DNA of 62,451 nucleotides, filler included, from Spirochaetales bacterium (GTDB lineage Bacteria; Spirochaetota; Spirochaetia; Treponematales; UBA12059), in the NCBI GenBank assembly GCA_016928955.1. It is 3 parts of 3 records of this genome, joined end to end, with 100 filler letters (N's around TTAATTAATTAA, not from the genome) between each part and the next. Parts side by side here need not be neighbours in the genome. Positions count along the whole stretch, not along the records: positions 1 to 24,216 come from JAFGJV010000025.1; 2 more parts are not named here. One strand, 5' to 3'. Position numbers and translations under genes: made by a program. Below are positions 3,763-14,606 of the stretch, one piece after another (position 1 is the first letter of the stretch; every line of letters begins with the position of its first letter). The notes under the pieces were generated by a model. It saw nothing but the letters and a program-made list of their open reading frames with translations. It made no database searches and was not told the DNA's origin.

Positions 3763-5616
3763 TCAGTCGCCGTTCGCGTGAGGCAGCCGGAGAACCTCCC
3801 GTTCGTCGCCCCTGCGTTTCAACAGCCCCCGGTCCTCCATGCGGTTGAGGAGGGGCAGAATGTACTTCCTGGACAGGCCTGTTCTCTCCTTGGCCAGGCC
3901 CACGCCAAAGAGCTGGCCGGGCGACATGCCGGCCAGTATGGCGGCCGAAAGGCGCGCGTACTCGCGTGAAGCCAGGAAGATGCCCCCGTCCAGGGGCACG
4001 GCCAGCCCGAGTGAGCACAATTGTTTGAGGGCCGGCGCGTCGGTTTTTGGGGCGCTTGCGCCGGGCTCAAGACCCGCGGCCCCCGCCTTCCCCAGGCGTT
4101 TCAGAAGTTCGGCCAGGGCTGGGCTCAGGGTCGGCGCCTGCCCGGGAATCCGCCATGTCGCTTCTGAGCGCGTAAGTGCGCCCTGAGCCACCAGGGTAGA
4201 CAAGACAGCGTCGGCGGCCGTATCGCTTAGGGAACATGCAGACAGTGCCGCCACCCTGCCCAGGCCCTCCGGTTTTGACGCCAGGTGGGCAAGGGTGGCT
4301 GACAGGGCGTTCCAGGCGCTTTGGGTAAAGGCAACGCGTCCGGCCGCGAGCAGGTTCAGTCCGGCCACGGCCGTGGGGGGCAGGTCGGCCGGCAGGAAGG
4401 CGTGGCCGCGTCCGGTCAGCTCAAGGGCAAAGTCCCATGCCTGGGACGGGGCCAGAGCCGGAGCCGAGCTGGCCAGGGCTGCTACCAATGCTTCCGCCTG
4501 TCCGGCCGATGCCGACAGGGACTTTCTGCCTGCCTGGCCGGGCGGCGCCGTACCTATAACCAGTCCCCTCCCTATGAGGTCTGAGCCGCCCTTGCGTATC
4601 AGGATGAAGGGCTGGCCGGCAGGACAGGCCAGGGCCTGGGCGCAGGCCACCCGGACCAGCCGGCTGTCCTTCAGCGGCCACAGGACCACCTCGCCGTGCG
4701 CGCTGCCCAAGGCAAGCTCTGCCTCCACTCCCGGCCTGATCAGGGCCCGCCCCCTTTTGTCCAGGGGACACAGCGTGTCGGTGCCCGGAAGAGGCTGGAG
4801 GACGGCAAGCAGGTCCGTGCCGGATATGGTCCTGACGCCGTCTTTGACAAGAAGTTGGCCGCGCCTGTATCCGTCCTTCCTGGAAGACAGGGAAAGGGCC
4901 ACCCTGGCGGCGGGCCGTACCAGCTCCTGCCCGCGCCTGTGGGTCTGAATGGCCTTGATTTTTGCCTGATCGCCTTCCGGCAGGAGCACCAGGCGCTCGC
5001 CTTCTGCCAGGGGGCCGCCCCGGAGCGTCCCCGTGACCACGCTGCCGCCGCCCCTCGGAGTGAAGTGGCGGTCCACATAGCAATAGGCCGAATCCTCTAA
5101 CGGGGGCGGCAAGGATGCCAGCTCGCAGGCTATGGCCTGTTTCAGCTCTGAAAGACCGGTGCCCGCCTTGACGGACACGGATACGGCGTGCGGACGGTAT
5201 CCAAGGATTTTTGCGGCTCGTTCGGTCACGTCGGCAATCACGCTGTCCGTTCGCTCCCGCTGGGCAAGGTCTGTTTTGGAGACGACGATCAGCACCCGGG
5301 ACACGCCCATGCACGCCAGGATGGACGCGTGCACCTGGCTCTGGGGCATCCAGCCGTCGTCCGCCGCCACCACAAGGAGGGCCATATCCAGGCCCCAGGC
5401 TCCCGCGGCCATGTTGCGCAGGTAGCGTTCGTGTCCCGGCACGTCCACCACGCCCACGTCCTGGCCGTCGGAACCCTGGTACCAGGCAAAGCCCAGGTCG
5501 GTGGTCATGCCGCGCGCCTTTTCCTCGGGCAAGCGGTCAGGATCCATGTTGGTCAGGGCCAGGATCAGGGCGGTCTTGCCGTGGTCCACGTGACCAGCCG
5601 TGCCTATGACCCTCAT
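3763..5616 (-). CDS. selB: Selenocysteine-specific translation elongation factor SelB
   Basis: GTAGHVDHGKT, DRLPEEKARGMTTDLGF, DVPGHERY; C-terminal winged-helix SECIS-binding motif LSRKYILPLL; overlaps the selA stop. Confidence 0.95.
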   Translation of the reverse strand: MRVIGTAGHVDHGKTALILALTNMDPDRLPEEKARGMTTDLGFAWYQGSDGQDVGVVDVPGHERYLRNMAAGAWGLDMALLVVAADDGWMPQSQVHASILACMGVSRVLIVVSKTDLAQRERTDSVIADVTERAAKILGYRPHAVSVSVKAGTGLSELKQAIACELASLPPPLEDSAYCYVDRHFTPRGGGSVVTGTLRGGPLAEGERLVLLPEGDQAKIKAIQTHRRGQELVRPAARVALSLSSRKDGYRRGQLLVKDGVRTISGTDLLAVLQPLPGTDTLCPLDKRGRALIRPGVEAELALGSAHGEVVLWPLKDSRLVRVACAQALACPAGQPFILIRKGGSDLIGRGLVIGTAPPGQAGRKSLSASAGQAEALVAALASSAPALAPSQAWDFALELTGRGHAFLPADLPPTAVAGLNLLAAGRVAFTQSAWNALSATLAHLASKPEGLGRVAALSACSLSDTAADAVLSTLVAQGALTRSEATWRIPGQAPTLSPALAELLKRLGKAGAAGLEPGASAPKTDAPALKQLCSLGLAVPLDGGIFLASREYARLSAAILAGMSPGQLFGVGLAKERTGLSRKYILPLLNRMEDRGLLKRRGDEREVLRLPHANGD

Positions 5617-7007: not shown

Positions 7008-7013
7008 AGGTAG

Positions 7014-7102
7014 CGGAAGAGGCAGGAATCGAACCTGCCACCGCGCGGCGCGCGGCCAGCGGTTTTGAAGACCGCGGGAGCCACCAGACCCCATCTGCTT
7101 CC
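7014..7102 (-). tRNA. selC: tRNA-Sec (anticodon UCA)
   Basis: GGAAGCAG... 6-bp D stem with 4-nt loop (GGGGTC-TGGT-GGCTCC), anticodon arm GCGGT-CTTCAAA-ACCGC, long variable arm, GCAGG-TTCGATT-CCTGC T arm, discriminator G; CCA not encoded. Confidence 0.96.
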
Positions 7103-7133
7103 CTGGCACACCGTGGCGCCATGAGCGTGCTCA

Positions 7134-7241: not shown

Positions 7242-8306
7242 ATGGACATCCGGAAGACCATACGTCTGACCAGTATGTGCTCGGCCGCTGGGTGAGCGGC
7301 AAAAATGGGCCCTGAAGCCCTGGCGCAGGTTCTGCGCCCTTTGGCCGCCTTGGTGCCGCCCGAGCGGGCCCCCGATTTGCTGGCGGGTTTTGCCGAGGGT
7401 GACGACGCGGCCGTATACCGGCTGAACGACGAGCAATGCCTCATTTTCACGGCTGATTTTTTCACGCCCGTGGTGGACGACCCCTACGACTTTGGGGCCA
7501 TAGCGGCGGCCAATGCCCTGTCGGACGTGTATGCCACGGGCGGCGTGCCCATACTTGCCCTGAACCTGGCGGCTTTCCCGCCGGAACTGGACCAGGACGT
7601 GGTGAGGCACATCATACGTGGCGGAGCGGAAACGGCGTCGGCCGCCGGGTGCGCGGTTGCCGGCGGGCACACCATAACGGACGCTGAGCCTAAATTCGGC
7701 ATGGCCGTGGTCGGTTTGGCCCATCCCGACCAGGTGCTCCTCAAGTCGGGGGCCGTGCCGGGCGATGCCCTGATCCTGACCAAGGTGCTTGGAACGGGGG
7801 CCGTCACCACGGCCGCAAAGAACGGGCGATGCACGCCGGAACAGCTGGCCGCCGCCGTGGATTCGATGAAGCTGCTCAACCGCGACGCTTTGATGGTCCT
7901 GCGGAGGCACGGCGTGAGGGCGTGCACGGACATAACGGGTTTCTCCTTCGCCGGCCATGCCCTGGAACTGGCCGGAAAGGGCAGTGTCGGTCTGCGGGTA
8001 AACGCTGACAACCTCCGGTACCTGGACGGGGCACGGGAACTGACGGCCGCCGGGCAGGTACCCGGAGGAGCCATACGCAACCGTCGCTGTTACGAGCCCA
8101 TGGTCGGCTTTGACGGGAACTTTGACGAAGCATGGAGGGCGCTCTTCTTTATGCCGGAAACCTCAGGTGGGCTCCTGGCGGCCATACCGGCCGAGCGTGC
8201 ATCTGCCTGCGTGGACGAGCTCAGGCAAGCCGGCATCGTGGCCGACCGGGTCGGAGACGTGGTTGCGCCAGACGGCGGGCCGCCCCTGCGCGTGAGCTCC
8301 GGCTGA
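7242..8306 (+). CDS. selD: Selenide, water dikinase SelD, selenoprotein form (Sec at UGA 7293-7295, codon 18)
   Basis: ATG 7242 reads MDIRKTIRLTSMCSAAG-U-AAKMGPEAL in frame with ORF 7305..8306; the UGA occupies the catalytic Cys/Sec position of the G-C/U-x-x-K motif; DDAAVY, DFFTP, ANALSDVYA, GGHT, TDITGF, ETSGGLL. Confidence 0.95.
7306..7338 (+). promoter_or_regulatory. Candidate SECIS element of selD
   Basis: Hairpins 3' of the UGA: GGGC-CCTGAA-GCCC and GGCGCAG-GTT-CTGCGCC (7322-7338); which one is functional cannot be decided from sequence. Confidence 0.55.
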
Positions 8307-8412: not shown

Positions 8413-9285
8413 TTACTTCCAGGTGAGCTTGACGAACTTGACGGCAGGGTCCTTGGATATATCCTGGGCGGAACCGTCATAGGAACGGACCTTGGTCCAG
8501 CCCAGCTGCTGGGTCAGGATCCACCACCAGGTGGTGGCCAAAACGCCTGAATCGCAGTGGATGATCGTTTCCTTGCTGGCGCTCAGCTTGAGGGCCTTGA
8601 CCATGGCTTCAAGCTCGGCCTTGGGCTTGACCATGCCGTCGGCGGTAATCCAGGCGGCGGGCAGGCTCGTGGCGCCGGGGATGTGGCCGAACTGGGCCAC
8701 AAAAGCCGCTTTGGCAAGGCCAAAGTAGGTGTCGTAGGCGCGGACGTCCAGGATCTGGGCTTTCTTGAGGTTTTTGAGCACGTATGCCTTGTCGGCAAAG
8801 TAGGCGGCGTTGAAGCTCACCTGGAACTCTGTCTCGTCCTTGCTCTCAAAACCGGTGGCCACGCCCTTGCCGGCCTTGGTCCAGGCGGCGTACCCGCCGT
8901 CCAGCACGGCCACGTTGGGCACGCCGGCGTATACCAGGGTCCAGGCCACGCGGGTCGCCCAGGTGAAACGGGCACCGTCGGTCTCAACCACCACGACGAT
9001 GGAGTTGGCGTCAATGCCGGACTCGGCCAGGATGTCCGACAGGTCCTCGGCGTCCGGAACCTCGTTGGACAGGTCGTTCTTGGCCATGTACAGGCCCATG
9101 GCGTTGACGGCGCCGGGGACATGGCCGGCCTTGTAGTCGTCCATCTTGCGGACGTCCAGGACGACCAGGCGCTCGTTGCCAAGGTTGGCCTCGAGCCAGT
9201 CGGCTGAAACGATGGCGTCAACGTCGCGAGCAAAGGCGGGCGCGACGAGGGCGGCCAGTACCAGGAGAAGGGCTAGCTTCTTCAT
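8413..9285 (-). CDS. Exported tandem-domain rhodanese/sulfurtransferase
   Basis: AAGGAG RBS then signal peptide MKKLALLLVLAALVAPAFA; LDVR...Y..GHVPGA, VLDGGY..W, GHIPGA, active-site loop HCDSGVLA, YDGS. Confidence 0.9.
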   Translation of the reverse strand: MKKLALLLVLAALVAPAFARDVDAIVSADWLEANLGNERLVVLDVRKMDDYKAGHVPGAVNAMGLYMAKNDLSNEVPDAEDLSDILAESGIDANSIVVVVETDGARFTWATRVAWTLVYAGVPNVAVLDGGYAAWTKAGKGVATGFESKDETEFQVSFNAAYFADKAYVLKNLKKAQILDVRAYDTYFGLAKAAFVAQFGHIPGATSLPAAWITADGMVKPKAELEAMVKALKLSASKETIIHCDSGVLATTWWWILTQQLGWTKVRSYDGSAQDISKDPAVKFVKLTWK

Positions 9286-9338
9286 GATGGGGTGCTCCTT
9301 CAAAGGCAAGGCGGTTTCTCGGCATGGCCGGTCCCGCC

Positions 9339-9370
9339 AAAAAAGGTCCCCGCCCGGCCAGGGGGCGGGG
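9339..9370 (-). terminator. Intrinsic terminator-like hairpin between the cytochrome and rhodanese genes
   Basis: Minus strand CCCCGCCC-N7-GGGCGGGG-ACC-TTTTTT just after the cytochrome stop. Confidence 0.65.
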
Positions 9371-9378
9371 GCTATGAA

Positions 9379-10602
9379 CTAGGGAACAAGCTCCAGGTTT
9401 TTCAATGAGAGCCCCTCGGGCAGGTCGCTGGTCTGCAGGTAATGGGCGCCTTCCACGTGGCAGGCGTTGCAGTCGCGGGTGCGGTCTGTGCGCTTGGCCA
9501 GGTTGTGGGGCACGGCGTCCCAGTAGTTCGGCAGGCTGTCGTAGTTGGACATGGTCACCCCGGCGTGCTTGAACGTGTCGCGCACGGTGGGGATCAACCT
9601 GAGCGTGGTCAGCTCCTTGGGATTGCGTGGACTCTTGCCCAGTACCAGGCCAGGCTTGGCCGTGGCGCCGGAGCCCTCATGGCAGTTTGAGCACTGGCGG
9701 TATTCAGACGTGACATGGCAGGCGGAACACGACACGTGCTCTAGATGCGTTGCGTGGGTCTCCTGCGTGGAATCCTTGCCCATGGTGGCTATGTCGTGGC
9801 AGTCGGTGCATGACGGCCTGTTGGCCACGTCCTTGCGTCCGCTTGCTGCTCCGGACGTGCCGTGGAACTGGTCTCCGCTGTGACAGTCCGTGCAAGTCAT
9901 GCCCTTGCGGTAGTGCACGTCGGGCACTCCCGTGTAGTCGCCCGTGAATTCCGGCCACACGCGGCCTCCGTGGCACAGGGCGCAGGTTTTAGACTCGTCG
10001 GCTTTGACAAAGCGGTGCCCGTCCAGGAGGCCCGAGTTGATTCCGGATACCACGGGGCTCTGCACGTGGCAGTCGCCGCAGGACGCGTGGCATGAGCGGC
10101 AGGATTGCTCGAACACCTTCTGGTCAAAGAGCTTCTTTTCAGCGGCGTTGAAACGCGGCGCAACGCCGTTTTTCATGCCGGCCGCCGTGTAGTGCAGGGC
10201 CAGGGTATAGGTTTTGGAAATGGCCTCATGGCATTGTCCGCAGCTGGTTTCCGGCTGGTCCGAAGGGCGCTTGATCATGCCCTTGTGCGCAGCCGCCTTG
10301 TCCGCCGCGTTCTGATTGCCCTGGTGGCAACTTATGCAATCGAGGTAGAAATGGGGGTCTTCCGCCAGCGCGTCAGGGCTGACGACAAAGCCCATGTAAT
10401 AATCCGCCCGAACCGGGGGAGGAGCTCCCGCTCACCCCTCGCCTTCGGCCGACGCACCCGAGGGCGGCGTGACGAGCTTCTGCATCGTGGCCGGCGTGCT
10501 GTGGCAGTCAACGCAGCTACCGCCCGTTGCGTGGGCGGCTAGGGCGGCGGCGCCAAAGAACGCGACCATGAGCATGGCCCGCTTGCTTGCGGCCATATTC
10601 AT
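9379..10602 (-). CDS. Exported multiheme cytochrome c selenoprotein (11 CxxCH, Sec at UGA 10432-10434, codon 57; 407 aa)
   Basis: AAGGAGG RBS, ATG 10602, signal peptide, CVDCH, ...SAEGEG-U-AGAPPPVRADYY continuing in frame into ORF 9379..10395, which carries 10 more CxxCH; SECIS-like hairpin; adjacent sel genes. Confidence 0.88.
10403..10420 (-). promoter_or_regulatory. Candidate SECIS element of the multiheme cytochrome
   Basis: UCCCCCG-GUU-CGGG(C)GGA hairpin whose G-starting loop begins 18 nt after the UGA. Confidence 0.7.
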
Positions 10603-10715
10603 AGGAACCTCCTTGCCGGGATGGATAAGGCCAACGGCCCTCGCGGATCCAGTAAAGAACCCGCTACTCAGCTAATTTCAAAACTCGTCCGACTTTTGAA
10701 AGAGCCTCGTATCAG

Positions 10716-10744
10716 ACTATAACCAATGTTGGGCACGGTGTAAA
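10716..10744 (-). promoter_or_regulatory. sigma70-like promoter for the cytochrome gene
   Basis: TTTACA-N17-TATAGT on the minus strand, with an AT-rich tract upstream. Confidence 0.6.
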
Positions 10745-10797
10745 TAGATAAAAATAAATATATATATGATTAACGACATCAAGAATGCCCGTCTCGA

Positions 10798-10826
10798 TTG
10801 ACAAAAACGGTTTGTGCCCCTAGTCT
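10798..10826 (+). promoter_or_regulatory. sigma70-like promoter for resB-ccsA
   Basis: TTGACA-N17-TAGTCT, divergent from the cytochrome promoter. Confidence 0.6.
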
Positions 10827-10879: not shown

Positions 10880-11857
10880 GTGAACAAACTGCTGGATAAG
10901 CTGTCCTCGATAAAGCTGGCCATCGGACTGATCGTGTATCTGGCCGTGACAGGTATTTTGGCGACCCTGGTGCCGCAGGGTCTTGCCTTTGAAGAATACC
11001 AGGCCCTGTACCCCCGCCTGCTTGCCGACCTGGTATTCCAGACCGGGTTCTCGCATTTTTTCAATTCAATCCTGTTCATACTTCCGGCCTTGCTGTTTTT
11101 TGCCAATCTGTCGGTGTGCACCGTCAAGCGTTTTGTCCGGGAAATCCGCAGGAAGGGTCCCAAGCGCTTTGGTCCGGACATACTCCACCTCGGGCTGATG
11201 CTTCTGGTGCTGGGCTCAATCTGGTCGTATTCCGGACATCAGCAGGGCGCGGTTACCTTGAGCCCGGGCGAGGGCGTGGAGCTGCCCGACGGATCGACCC
11301 TGGTGCTCAGGGACTTCCGCTTTGAGCAGTACGACGATGGGCGCCCTAAGGATTGGATATCCACGGTGGACCTGAGCAAAAACGGCCAAATCATCAAGGA
11401 AGGCTATCAGCTCAAGGTCAACGCGCCGTTGCGGCACGCAGGCTTGACCCTGTACCAGGCATCCTACTCCCAGCGCTCGTCGCTCATCCTCAGGGACGCT
11501 GAAGGCCACGAATTCCGACTAGGGCAGGGCGAGAGCCTGGAACTCGGCGGCCTATCCGTGTTTTTCATGGCGCCCGAGGGCACGGACCCGGCGGGAGACG
11601 GCGTACTTGCGGCAGACCAGCAGCCGGATAACGCGCGGGCGGTGGTACAGCTGTCCGACGCCGACGGACAACGAGTGGAAAGGCTGGCGCCGGGCTCTGT
11701 GCTCGGCGACGTCACCGTGATCGGCTTCAGGAACGAGCTGGCGACGGGCATAGAGGCTGTGGACGACCCGGGCTATCCCCTGGTGCTCGTGGCCCTGATT
11801 CTCATAGCCTTTGGCACCGCGCTCACCTTCATACAGAAACTCAAGGAGCTTGCATGA
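10880..11857 (+). CDS. resB: Cytochrome c biogenesis protein ResB/CcsB-like (system II)
   Basis: LSSIKLAI...GILATLVPQG, NLSVCT, conserved His (ILHLG), large extracytoplasmic loop with VNAPL...YQASY, DPGYPLV TM; ATGA overlap with ccsA. Confidence 0.85.
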   Translation: MNKLLDKLSSIKLAIGLIVYLAVTGILATLVPQGLAFEEYQALYPRLLADLVFQTGFSHFFNSILFILPALLFFANLSVCTVKRFVREIRRKGPKRFGPDILHLGLMLLVLGSIWSYSGHQQGAVTLSPGEGVELPDGSTLVLRDFRFEQYDDGRPKDWISTVDLSKNGQIIKEGYQLKVNAPLRHAGLTLYQASYSQRSSLILRDAEGHEFRLGQGESLELGGLSVFFMAPEGTDPAGDGVLAADQQPDNARAVVQLSDADGQRVERLAPGSVLGDVTVIGFRNELATGIEAVDDPGYPLVLVALILIAFGTALTFIQKLKELA

Positions 11858-12654
11858 CCCTGTCCCAGATACTGGCCACCGCGGCCTTCTCCCTCCTTGG
11901 CCTTTCGGCCCTGGTCCTTATCGTGCGCCTGTTCTCCCGCTCGGGCAAACCCGAATGGCTGTCGGCGGCTGCCCAGGCCCTCGCGGCGGTGCTGTTGGCC
12001 GCCGAGCTGGTCATGCGGAGCTTTCAGGTGGGCTTTGTGGCCCTCACCAGCACGTACGAGTCGCTCCTGTTCTACGCCGCGGTGATAGCCGCCCTCTTGG
12101 TGTGGTACCGTTTCCAGAAAAAACTGCGGTACAGCGCCGGGCTGGCCTTTGGAGCCGTGATGGTAGCCATCATCATGATGGCCGTGGCCAGTTCACCGCT
12201 GATAGCCAAAGAGGCCCTGCCGCCCATACCGGCCCTGCGTTCGGGGTGGCTCGTGTTGCATGTGAGCTTCTCGTTCATCGGGGAGGCGTTCTTTGTGGTC
12301 AGCTTCGTCGCGTCCATACTGTTCCTGGCGACCAAGAACGACGAGCGTCGCCTGGATCTGGACCGCGTCACCTACACGTCCGTGGCCATAGGCTATGTAT
12401 TCTTCACGGCAGGCGCCCTGGCCTTTGGAGCCATCTGGGCAGAGCAGGCATGGGGACGCTGGTGGAGCTGGGATCCAAAGGAAACCTGGGCCCTGGTCAC
12501 CTGGCTGGTGTATACGGCGTACCTGCACGTGCGCCTGGTGATGAAGCGCAAGGACTCGTGGCCGTCGATCATATCGGTTGCCGGGTTCCTGTGCACGGTG
12601 TTCACGTTCTTTGGAGTGAACTACCTGTTGCCCGGGCTCCACAGCTACGGTTGA
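11854..12654 (+). CDS. ccsA: Cytochrome c biogenesis protein CcsA/ResC (system II heme lyase)
   Basis: WWD domain GAIWAEQAWGRWWSWDPKETWAL, PALRSGWLVLHV, YLH, GVNYLLPGLHSY. Confidence 0.95.
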   Translation: MTLSQILATAAFSLLGLSALVLIVRLFSRSGKPEWLSAAAQALAAVLLAAELVMRSFQVGFVALTSTYESLLFYAAVIAALLVWYRFQKKLRYSAGLAFGAVMVAIIMMAVASSPLIAKEALPPIPALRSGWLVLHVSFSFIGEAFFVVSFVASILFLATKNDERRLDLDRVTYTSVAIGYVFFTAGALAFGAIWAEQAWGRWWSWDPKETWALVTWLVYTAYLHVRLVMKRKDSWPSIISVAGFLCTVFTFFGVNYLLPGLHSYG

Positions 12655-12662
12655 TAAACGCC

Positions 12663-14606
12663 CTACCCGGAAGCCAGGCTCCCGTCAGGGGGCCGGCCCT
12701 TGCCCGGTGCATCCGCCGCCGATGCATCGGGGCGGGGCGGTATGTACACGGTCACCGATGACCCGCCGCCGGCCCGCCCGCCCACGGTGAGCGACGCGCC
12801 GAGTTGCTGGGCCAGGGCCCGTACGATGGTGTAGCCCATGCCCCCTGACTGCTCGGGTTCAAAGCCGTCCGGAAAACCGCGCCCGTCGTCCTCCACCGAT
12901 ACCGCGAGCCATCCGTCATCCTGACGGCGCGCCCGCAGGTAGACGGTGCCGTGGCCGCGGTCCAAGAAGGCATATTTCAGGGAATTGGTGACCAGCTCGT
13001 TGGCGATGAGGCCTATGGGCACGGCGTCCTCAAGGGCAAGCTGGCTATCGTCCGCGTCCACCTTCCATTCGATCTCTGTGCATCCGCCCAGATACACGTC
13101 GCACAGGTCCGTAAAAAGATCCCGCAGGTAGTCGCCGGCGCTTATGGACGACAGGTCCACCGAGCGGTACAGCTGCTCGTGCACGTGGGCCATGGCGCGG
13201 ACGCGGTCCTGGCTCTCCTGAAACAAGCCTCGGTCGTATTCGTTGTGGAAGCGGTCCGACTGTATGGACAGGAGGCTGGACACGATCTGAAGGTTGTTTT
13301 TGACGCGGTGATGGATTTCCTTGAGCAGGGCCTCCTTTTCCCGCAGCGAATCCGACAATTTCCGAAGGGTCAGTTCCCTGCTGGTTACATCACGGGACAG
13401 GCAGAGGGCGCGCTTGTCGTCCAAACGGGCTATGCGAGCATCAAAGGTCAGGCCGCCGTCCGGGCCCGGAAGGGTGTACTGGAGCAGCTGAACCTCATTG
13501 GTCTTGATGGCCTTATCTATAGCTACACAGGCGCGCTCGTGCAGGGCGCTGTCGCCCAGGACCTCGTACACGCTTTTGCCCAGGAAGTCGTCAACCGGTG
13601 CCGCGACCACGGCCGAGCTCTGGTAATGGGCCTCCAGGTAGCGGCCCTCCCGGTCAAACACAAACAGGTAGTCGGGCAGGGCGTTGACCATGGCTTCCAG
13701 GCGGGCGCGTGCGCCGGCCAGCTCGGCCAGTCTGGCCGCCAATTCGGCCGTGCGCACGGCTACCGTGCGCTTGAGAACGGCCGCGGCCAGGGCAAGGATA
13801 ACGATAAAGAGGGCTAATACAGCCGAGCCCGCCGCCAGCCACGTTACCGTTTTTGGGTCCAGACTCCGGAACAGCGTTGACCCGAACCAGCGCCTGTCTA
13901 TGGCGTCCGTCACGGACGGCGGCAGGGCATTGAAGCCGCGCTCGACCAGTTCCAGCACGGCCGCGTCGCCCTTGGCCACGGCGCGGTGGAAACTGCCGGT
14001 GTACAGGTTCATGGCCTTGCGGTAATCGCGTGCCGCCCCCGCTTTCTGGAGCAGGTAGAGGGCGGGAGGTTCGTCCAGGCAGAAAATGCGCTCGGTACCG
14101 TCGAGGGCGGCGTCTACGAGCGCGTCGTAGCTCGGGTAGAGGCTGATGTCCTCAACACCGGCGGCGCGGAGCACGTCCACGCATGCGTCGCCCCGCTTGG
14201 CAGCCACGCGGAAACCTCTGAGGTCTTCAGGTTCGGCCAGGCCCGATATGTCGCTGTGGAAAAAGACAGGCACGGGCAATTCGGCGTAGGGCGGGGTGAA
14301 ATCCAGCCAGGCGTCCCGCTCGTCGTTCCGGAAAATGGTGTCTATGACGTCCGCCTGGCCGGCACGCATGGCCTCCAGGGCGGCCGACCATTCCATGCCC
14401 CGGAGCTCGACCCTGACGCCCGTGGCATCCTGCCAGGCCTTCCACAGGTCCGGAAGTATGCCCTTGAGCCTGCCGTCGTCGTCCTGAAACGAGTAGGGCG
14501 GGTAGTCGTTGTCGCATACCACGACTATCGAGTGTATGGACGGCGTGGCCTGGGCAAACGCCAGCTTGGTTGCCAGGCACAAGAGCAGGGCGGGGGCGAA
14601 CTTCAC
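12663..14606 (-). CDS. Sensor histidine kinase (family-3 solute-binding domain, TM, PAS, HisKA_2/HATPase)
   Basis: Signal peptide, DYPPYSF SBP domain, LLKEIHHRVKNNLQ, NELVTNSLKYAF, DDGRG, GMG. Confidence 0.9.
   Translation of the reverse strand: MKFAPALLLCLATKLAFAQATPSIHSIVVVCDNDYPPYSFQDDDGRLKGILPDLWKAWQDATGVRVELRGMEWSAALEAMRAGQADVIDTIFRNDERDAWLDFTPPYAELPVPVFFHSDISGLAEPEDLRGFRVAAKRGDACVDVLRAAGVEDISLYPSYDALVDAALDGTERIFCLDEPPALYLLQKAGAARDYRKAMNLYTGSFHRAVAKGDAAVLELVERGFNALPPSVTDAIDRRWFGSTLFRSLDPKTVTWLAAGSAVLALFIVILALAAAVLKRTVAVRTAELAARLAELAGARARLEAMVNALPDYLFVFDREGRYLEAHYQSSAVVAAPVDDFLGKSVYEVLGDSALHERACVAIDKAIKTNEVQLLQYTLPGPDGGLTFDARIARLDDKRALCLSRDVTSRELTLRKLSDSLREKEALLKEIHHRVKNNLQIVSSLLSIQSDRFHNEYDRGLFQESQDRVRAMAHVHEQLYRSVDLSSISAGDYLRDLFTDLCDVYLGGCTEIEWKVDADDSQLALEDAVPIGLIANELVTNSLKYAFLDRGHGTVYLRARRQDDGWLAVSVEDDGRGFPDGFEPEQSGGMGYTIVRALAQQLGASLTVGGRAGGGSSVTVYIPPRPDASAADAPGKGRPPDGSLASG

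Follow-up and report, generated by a model that had tools for sequence, protein, structure and literature searches.

In Wolinella succinogenes the periplasmic rhodanese-type carrier Sud passes sulfane sulfur to a terminal reductase (polysulfide reductase), and in the octaheme tetrathionate reductase (OTR) the heme of the active site is ligated by a lysine. Selenocysteine (Sec) has also found its way into cytochromes: a selenoproteome review of 2026 recognises three cytochrome selenoprotein families, namely ExtKL, the GSU2204 family and the Sec forms of TIGR04315 (PMC13188914). MccSep / ExtKL (GSU2937-2936) of Geobacter sulfurreducens is described as a Sec-containing multiheme polysulfide reductase that also reduces selenite; in the chemistry reported for it, Sec attacks polysulfide or selenite and reduction fed by the hemes follows (PMC13510729). 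This report concerns a gene at positions 9379-10602 of a 62,451-nucleotide (nt) stretch of DNA, filler included, from a Spirochaetales bacterium (assembly GCA_016928955.1); the whole stretch is called the window. The product, an 11-heme cytochrome c interrupted by an in-frame UGA, is, as judged from its sequence and those of its relatives, a member of an unnamed and widespread selenoprotein family.

A 56-amino acid (aa) open reading frame (ORF; 10432-10602) closes at the TGA at 10434-10432, and a 338-aa ORF with ten CxxCH motifs (9379-10395) lies in the same frame. When TGA is translated as Sec (U), a protein of 407 aa with 11 CxxCH motifs results, and 22 of its 22 Cys residues fall within these motifs. 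The N-terminus (MNMAASKRAMLMVAFFGAAALAAHA-T) resembles a cleavable signal peptide of the Sec secretion pathway (…AAHA-T) as judged by eye, and the downstream piece, taken from M70, bears no signal peptide. An earlier note on this DNA had placed the ribosome-binding site (RBS) and the ATG at 10602 in frame with the 338-aa ORF and had stressed that this ORF could not be exported by itself; the layout was reproduced on the minus strand and the missing signal peptide was confirmed. The elements of the gene are the following.

9379-10602, minus strand: complete coding sequence (407 codons, then a TAG stop at 9381-9379) of the selenoprotein, an 11-heme cytochrome c
Codons 1-25 (approximately): signal peptide of the cytochrome; heme 1 is bound at C30xxCH and hemes 2-11 lie between C89 and H382
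10608-10614, minus strand: RBS AAGGAGG, 5 nt upstream of the ATG (10602-10600)
10432-10434, minus strand: in-frame TGA, codon 57, in the motif AEGEG-U-AGAPPPVRA, read as Sec
10403-10420, minus strand: hairpin resembling a selenocysteine insertion sequence (SECIS), nt 15-32 counted from the U of UGA as 1, with the stem UCCxCC/GGxGGA

It is almost certain, on this sequence evidence, that 9379-10602 is one gene in which UGA codon 57 would be translated as Sec through SelA, SelB, SelC and SelD encoded nearby, the hairpin 11 nt downstream serving as guide. A single exported 11-heme cytochrome recoded at the UGA is what the earlier note had proposed, and the proposal is upheld by the conservation of the TGA, the constraint on the hairpin, the co-occurrence with selA, the homologues with Cys and the full-length relatives with Ala or Tyr, which are described below.

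Scanning a single genome from each species turned up 358 stretches encoding a relative of the cytochrome, the best 80 of which were fetched, and a metagenome scan contributed 18 further loci. The 118 fetched loci aligned to residues 28-100, among which the same genomes are partly represented twice, contain 87 distinct sequences around the site. TGA occupies the aligned codon in 115 of the 118; two contigs begin past the site, and the sole fetched locus with a sense codon there, L119 (3001-3345, at a contig end), has AAT (Asn) in AAEGEG-N-AGTPLPVKA. The motif at the site in the homologous loci is (A/S)EGEG-U-AGxPP(P/S)V(R/K/P/S), and the flanks of the TGA are conserved and under purifying selection on either side. 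Among 61 related genomes, 21 contain a homologue (54-100% identity), each with exactly one in-frame TGA (21/21). The record titles of the relatives name Spirochaetota, Syntrophales, Smithella, Syntrophorhabdaceae, Pelobacter, other deltaproteobacteria, Nitrospirota and a "Firmicutes" metagenome-assembled genome (MAG). The homologue in G031 (L006/L025) carries, besides the conserved TGA, an in-frame TAA in the heme-1 module (…NPATM-stop-KLV…) and may be a pseudogene or the product of a sequencing error. An error in the reads at the window's own TGA is contradicted by near-identical DNA in independent metagenome assemblies, where 10432-10434 is unchanged (X2 record 17, covering 9200-10800; X3 record 27, covering 10071-10800).

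Relatives that lack the TGA are informative as well. Of the 120 best database matches, six cross the site and four of these are genuinely free of TGA, with Ala (P0042, P0062, P0090) or Tyr (P0088) in its place; all four run uninterrupted from signal peptide through heme 1 to the core, and the 56-aa and 338-aa pieces are therefore parts of one protein. Among 47 full-length TGA-free cluster representatives, Cys stands at or beside the aligned column in 12, in the motifs x-C-GG-xxP or DG-C-A, and the remainder have Ala, Tyr, Trp, Val, Leu, His or other residues. Homologues thus keep TGA (115/118 loci) or, in these 12 distant cases, Cys, with conserved flanks, as had been anticipated; varied non-Cys residues, which had been named as a ground for abandoning recoding, occur in a small minority only (Ala in P0042, P0062 and P0090, Tyr in P0088, Asn in L119).

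The RNA downstream of the UGA is constrained beyond what the protein requires. The stem of the hairpin pairs nt 15-21 with nt 26-32, and its loop holds at nt 22-23 a GU (part of a Val codon) that never varies. A hairpin with a GUU loop had been noticed before and is recovered by RNAfold, with its stem starting 11 nt past the UGA rather than 18. Three pairs, C16-G31, C17-G30 and C20-G27, are retained without exception (70/70 sequences), and U15-A32 is lost in only four (66/70). Third codon positions are frozen where they contribute to the stem: the Pro codon at +4 is CCT in 81 of 85 sequences (expectation from the same genes about 0.15), with the stem base U15 fixed in 83 of 87, codon +8 always ends in G (87/87; expected 0.34), whether it specifies Arg, Lys, Pro or Ser, and codon +9 ends in G in all sequences but one (86/87; 0.29 expected from the same genes), while all four third bases occur at codons +1 to +3 of the 87 distinct sequences. 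Since these frozen synonymous bases are U15, G27 and G30 of the stem, the constraint on the hairpin acts at the level of RNA. A divergent class (L114-L118; peptide U-AGPPPRVTE) has another stem, CCUCCG/CGGAGG, and retains the GU at nt 22-23. Contigs from other organisms align to 10403-10446 at a likeness of at least 90%. The geometry is presumably like that of the SECIS of Escherichia coli fdhF. The 91-nt stretch after the UGA folds no better than its shuffles (z -0.01), and Rfam returned no SECIS-type match, tRNA-Sec being its only hit.

The machinery needed for Sec insertion is encoded beside the cytochrome, with selA, selB, selC and selD all within 7 kb of the gene.

7242-8306, plus strand: selD (selenide, water dikinase); TIGR00476, 325 bits, cut-off 125
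7293-7295, plus strand: in-frame TGA of selD, SAAG-U-AAK
7013-7103, minus strand: tRNA-Sec (selC), anticodon TCA, found by ARAGORN; Rfam RF01852, 67.2 bits, gathering score 47
5613 to about 6989, minus strand: selA (L-seryl-tRNA(Sec) selenium transferase), start codon not fixed; TIGR00474, 420.9 bits, cut-off 267.9
3763-5616, minus strand: selB-like elongation factor with GTP_EFTU and SelB-wing_3; TIGR00475, 216.8 bits, just below the cut-off of 242.25

SelD is itself a selenoprotein (MDIRKTIRLTSMCSAAG-U-AAK...), and the ORF call under translation table 11 begins at ATG 7305, with loss of the catalytic N-terminus. Among the 61 relatives, selA is present in all 21 that carry the cytochrome; conversely, the cytochrome occurs in 21 of the 31 genomes with selA, 10 selA-bearing relatives being without it, and in 0 of the 30 without a selA match above the cut-off. 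Genes for SelD, SelA or SelB lie within 6 kb of the cytochrome in 16 of the 80 loci, all 16 from records with titles in Spirochaet- or Treponema-, or naming Rectinemataceae, and selA is within 2.5 kb of it in G010, G021 and G043. A search of the genome for GrdA gave nothing and carries no weight, since the control genomes gave nothing either.

In the databases the family is present almost exclusively in truncated form: 114 of the 120 best matches (of 792 at E <= 1e-10) begin after the TGA, under the names "hypothetical protein", "cytochrome c3 family protein" and, from JGI, "thiosulfate/3-mercaptopyruvate sulfurtransferase". At the same threshold, 375 clusters (50% identity) match the family, and near-identical copies of the window gene occur in metagenomes of sludge, digesters, wastewater and sediment (11 studies). 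A search of NCBIfam models, which the earlier note had put forward as a way of placing the protein, gave weak matches to ExtM, ExtN and ExtO through the heme motifs; no model of release 20 scored above its cut-off for any of 49 family members. Pfam recognises nothing beyond generic cytochrome domains, and full-text literature searches on selenocysteine multiheme or undecaheme cytochromes and rhodanese found no description of the family. The window protein is not a member of the OTR family TIGR04315 (14.8 bits, E 0.011, cut-off 375), which was weakly matched by nine of the 49 members (best E 4e-5). ExtKL (NF040886) was not matched at E <= 1 by the window protein, nor was it among the 25 listed of the 29 families matched by the 49 members; identity with MccSep/ExtKL is ruled out by this result together with the 11 CxxCH motifs, the absence of any extra Cys and the position of Sec at residue 57.

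An AlphaFold model built from a 109-sequence alignment reached a pLDDT (predicted local distance difference test) of 91.1 and a pTM (predicted template modelling score) of 0.85, with a pLDDT of 68 for residues 51-60 and of 90 for residues 61-70. It replaced a first model from 49 sequences, which was discarded (pLDDT 67, below 50 in the Sec region). In a comparison with 48,161 chains by VIA-align, the best match was OTR (1sp3_A; Z 9.9, root-mean-square deviation 4.1 A, 257 residues aligned, 20% identity), the next having a Z of 4.6, and the weaker first model likewise ranked 1sp3 at the top. The aligned range comprises residues 81-407, and the module with heme 1 and Sec (26-80) lies outside it. 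Foldseek against the Protein Data Bank (PDB) gave no match at E <= 0.001 for either model (best E 0.088, TM 0.26), and a PDB sequence search found local heme-motif matches only, the best with E 1.1e-6 over 48 residues. By the VIA-align result the ten-heme core would be OTR-like in fold, and the heme-1/Sec module would be an addition to it. The resemblance to OTR suggested in the earlier note gains structural support (1sp3, Z 9.9) and fails as membership of TIGR04315 by sequence (14.8 against 375 bits). The conservation of the loop and the pLDDT of 90 modelled for residues 61-70 argue against a floppy linker around Sec57. Nine conserved His residues outside the heme motifs are available for 11 hemes, so that two hemes must make do with a different sixth ligand or lack one altogether, a feature known from catalytic multiheme enzymes.

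The neighbours of the cytochrome connect it with sulfur transfer and with heme attachment.

8413-9285, minus strand: periplasmic tandem rhodanese with its own signal peptide; PF00581 twice, 119 bits; Cys244 in C-D-S-G-V-L
9338-9370, minus strand: terminator-like hairpin of 8 G-C pairs followed by TTTTTT, located past the stop codon of the cytochrome and ahead of the rhodanese gene, a consensus match only
10716-10744, minus strand: sigma-70-like promoter match TTTACA-17-TATAGT, 10 of 12 positions, a consensus match only
10880-12654, plus strand: divergent resB (10880-11857) and ccsB (11854-12654), System II cytochrome c biogenesis

Cys244 of the second rhodanese domain, the predicted catalytic residue, is invariant in 45 aligned homologues. 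The rhodanese adjoins the cytochrome in 73 of the 80 loci, and 2 of 17 long homologues (P0165, P0179) are fusions of the two proteins. With the hairpin at 9338-9370 between them, transcription of the two genes may be partly uncoupled, or the hairpin may adjust their relative output. ResB (PF05140, 102.9 bits) is encoded beside the cytochrome in 34 of the 80 loci and CcsB (TIGR03144, 195 bits, cut-off 187.6) in 30, the divergent pair being placed upstream in the spirochaete loci. In the window genome, which is 99.5% complete, CcsB is the sole match to PF01578 and the cytochrome is the only multiheme cytochrome and the sole frame with more than two CxxCH motifs; two other frames have two each and neither matches Pfam. 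As the only multiheme cytochrome and the only CcsB are encoded together with the sel genes, cytochrome, maturation system and Sec machinery form one block. In the deltaproteobacterial chromosome of L074, further genes follow in the operon, for another multiheme cytochrome, another rhodanese and a fusion of multiheme cytochrome and cytochrome b561; by its gene content this is a respiratory layout.

Further observations concern the surroundings of this block. A sensor histidine kinase with a periplasmic solute-binding domain (SBP_bac_3) and a PAS domain (12663-14606, minus strand) follows ccsB, stands beside the module in 7 of the 80 loci and is, from its position, a candidate regulator of it. 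In L082 (3636-5625), from the MAG titled Firmicutes, the cytochrome-rhodanese pair has as neighbours the genes for a regulator of the ArsR type, a permease of the ArsP_1 type and a thioredoxin-like protein, a setting that may point to a response to metalloids or thiols. The 5' leader of the cytochrome gene contains a palindromic element of about 33 nt (10662-10709, minus strand; stem TTTCAAAA/TTTTGAAA, 10-nt loop), of which the genome holds about 20 or more dispersed copies and which unrelated metagenome contigs match to a depth of up to 448; it has no match in Rfam and looks like a REP-type (repetitive extragenic palindromic) repeat. The window was joined from at least two contigs, the cytochrome region being contig C37 and positions 24317-51720 contig C40, and genes flanking a joint are consequently not neighbours.

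As to function, we lean slightly towards a periplasmic reductase of chalcogen-chalcogen bonds, with polysulfide or sulfane sulfur, thiosulfate, tetrathionate and possibly selenium species as substrates, by analogy with described enzymes. In the scheme proposed, which is modelled on MccSep and OTR, the cytochrome would be exported by its signal peptide and would receive its 11 c-type hemes from the adjacent ResB/CcsB; sulfur would travel on the tandem rhodanese in the form of a Cys244 persulfide; Sec57, as a selenolate on a tight conserved loop (G-U-A-G), would attack this persulfide; and sulfide would finally be set free by reduction through the heme chain. The conservation of the codon, the constraint on the RNA, the link with the Sec machinery, the adjacency and fusion of the rhodanese and the likeness of the fold are observations; the substrate, the part played by Sec57 and the electron donor are inferred. 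Considered as a whole (Sec gene, export, hemes from ResB/CcsB, OTR-like core and chalcogen reductase), this is regarded as the best explanation and as a reasonably probable one.

Several results weigh against it. A few relatives with Ala, Tyr or Asn at the site retain the loop motif, and Sec is hence dispensable for the fold and perhaps for some functions; Ala-type queries, sought as a source of control DNA for the hairpin, yielded TGA at 15 of 15 sites and no Ala-type DNA was recovered. Covariation in the hairpin was null over 70 sequences (RNAalifold and pair counts; paired cells 77.1% against 77.8% after shuffling), because the stem hardly varies: only one pair differs on both sides, and the stem is conserved rather than covarying. 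The energy of the hairpin only weakly betters that of synonymous-codon shuffles (mean z -0.62; z is negative in 78% of sequences, compared with 47-54% in each of five control windows). Contigs from RNA libraries (X12, X14) cover 9200-10417 and leave 10447-10595 uncovered, so that the TGA is unbridged and they show neither transcription nor readthrough. In the genome, neither a membrane partner of the b561 or NrfD type nor a molybdopterin oxidoreductase was found; with no other multiheme cytochrome either, no electron donor is evident in it. The peptide mass of about 3.7 kDa per heme makes the protein look like an electron carrier by a published rule of thumb (PMC7096707), and there is no free Cys for a Cys-ligated heme of the MccSep type.

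The other explanations differ in whether they accept Sec at all. That the TGA is a true stop, leaving two genes, a pseudogene or an assembly error, follows the reading of the gene callers, for which 114 of 120 best matches start beyond the site, and could appeal to the extra TAA of G031; it is scarcely credible given that 115 of the 118 loci have the TGA, that purifying selection acts on the sequence before and after it, that independent assemblies agree, that full-length TGA-free relatives exist and that the downstream piece has no signal peptide though its hemes must be attached in the periplasm. Hardly better placed, and very improbable, is readthrough without Sec, in which a near-cognate tRNA or a changed genetic code would supply, for instance, Trp, Cys or Gly. 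Trp does appear at the site in database entries P0045 and P0058 and in five more, but the DNA of P0045 (L086) has TGA, which makes its Trp a gene caller's translation under code 4; in addition, the selD frame terminates at TGA, which is thus a working stop codon in this organism, the cytochrome is confined among the 61 relatives to genomes with selA, and a hairpin with GU stands where a bacterial SECIS is expected. Sec could instead be genuine and non-catalytic, an axial ligand or redox tuner of a heme in a pure electron-transfer cytochrome that exchanges electrons with the rhodanese or another partner. The nine conserved non-motif His for 11 hemes, the low ratio of peptide to heme, which suits electron carriers (PMC7096707), and the loop kept by Ala, Tyr and Asn variants would fit such a role. 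Against it speak the Cys-type homologues, which suit a redox-active chalcogen, the enzymatic nature of OTR as the closest fold and the strict pairing with a sulfurtransferase, which suggests substrate chemistry. Sec is costly, moreover, and is almost always kept for catalysis. A non-catalytic part is judged quite unlikely.

The main rival, unlikely in our estimate and still ahead of those just named, takes the Sec as real and the module as one for selenium acquisition, in which selenite, elemental selenium or poly-selenium would be handled in the periplasm, with the cytochrome and the rhodanese reducing and carrying it to provide SelD with selenide. The operon abuts selD, tRNA-Sec, selA and selB in the window, the same kind of proximity recurs in the 16 loci and in the three relatives with selA at close range, the best weak NCBIfam matches (ExtM, ExtN, ExtO, ExtH) are to the selenite/tellurite operon of Geobacter, and a respiratory partner was not found in the genome; MccSep, too, reduces selenite (PMC13510729). 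Outside the spirochaetes, however, 0 of 35 loci have sel genes nearby, and the 10 relatives with selA and without the cytochrome indicate that the gene is not needed for the use of Sec. Selenoprotein genes often adjoin sel genes merely because the trait moves as a block. An 11-heme chain would also be lavish for the supply of a trace element, and the operon of L074, with its quinol-oxidising c/b fusion, is of a respiratory type. A broader picture is advanced tentatively and is itself unlikely: in spirochaetes poor in cytochromes, the Sec-cytochrome, the rhodanese, a private ResB/CcsB and selD/selC/selA/selB might make up a self-contained transferable island. Its enzyme would have a new kind of catalytic centre, in which an N-terminal loop bears the selenolate and brings it to the active-site heme of an OTR-like core, perhaps as a ligand, and might act as a dedicated chalcogen-harvesting reductase for environmental selenium or sulfane sulfur outside the classical quinone-linked chain.

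Annotation pipelines truncate the gene and lose its signal peptide, its first heme and its selenium; reconstructions of anaerobic communities consequently miss a probable sulfur/selenium reductase, and counts of selenoproteomes are too low. For spirochaetes, the cytochrome may explain the retention of a c-type maturation system and of part of the Sec trait, and it offers a compact system for studies of selenium-heme chemistry. In the literature searched, MccSep (2026) is the sole biochemically characterised multiheme-cytochrome selenoenzyme (PMC13510729); the family described here would be a second one, unrelated and much more widespread.

Three known systems come closest. OTR of Shewanella oneidensis (PDB 1sp3, TIGR04315), a periplasmic enzyme of sulfur-compound reduction, is the closest solved fold to residues 81-407 and has 8 hemes against 11 in the window protein. 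The terminal reductase of Wolinella is a molybdoenzyme (Psr), whereas that of the window would be a heme selenoprotein, in a genome where a molybdopterin oxidoreductase was not found. MccSep and the window protein are both periplasmic multiheme cytochromes c with one Sec encoded by an in-frame UGA, both genes are split by annotation, and both carry Sec on a small Gly-flanked loop; the ext cluster contains the rhodanese-like ExtH, and the window cytochrome adjoins a rhodanese. They also differ. MccSep has 5 hemes in place of 11 and is unrelated in sequence; it has its Sec towards the C-terminal end (U325, D-G-U-P) and not at residue 57 (G-U-A-G); its active-site heme is ligated by Cys with U325 beside it, whereas the window family has no Cys outside CxxCH; and it bears an Ig-like stem and assembles as a tetramer.

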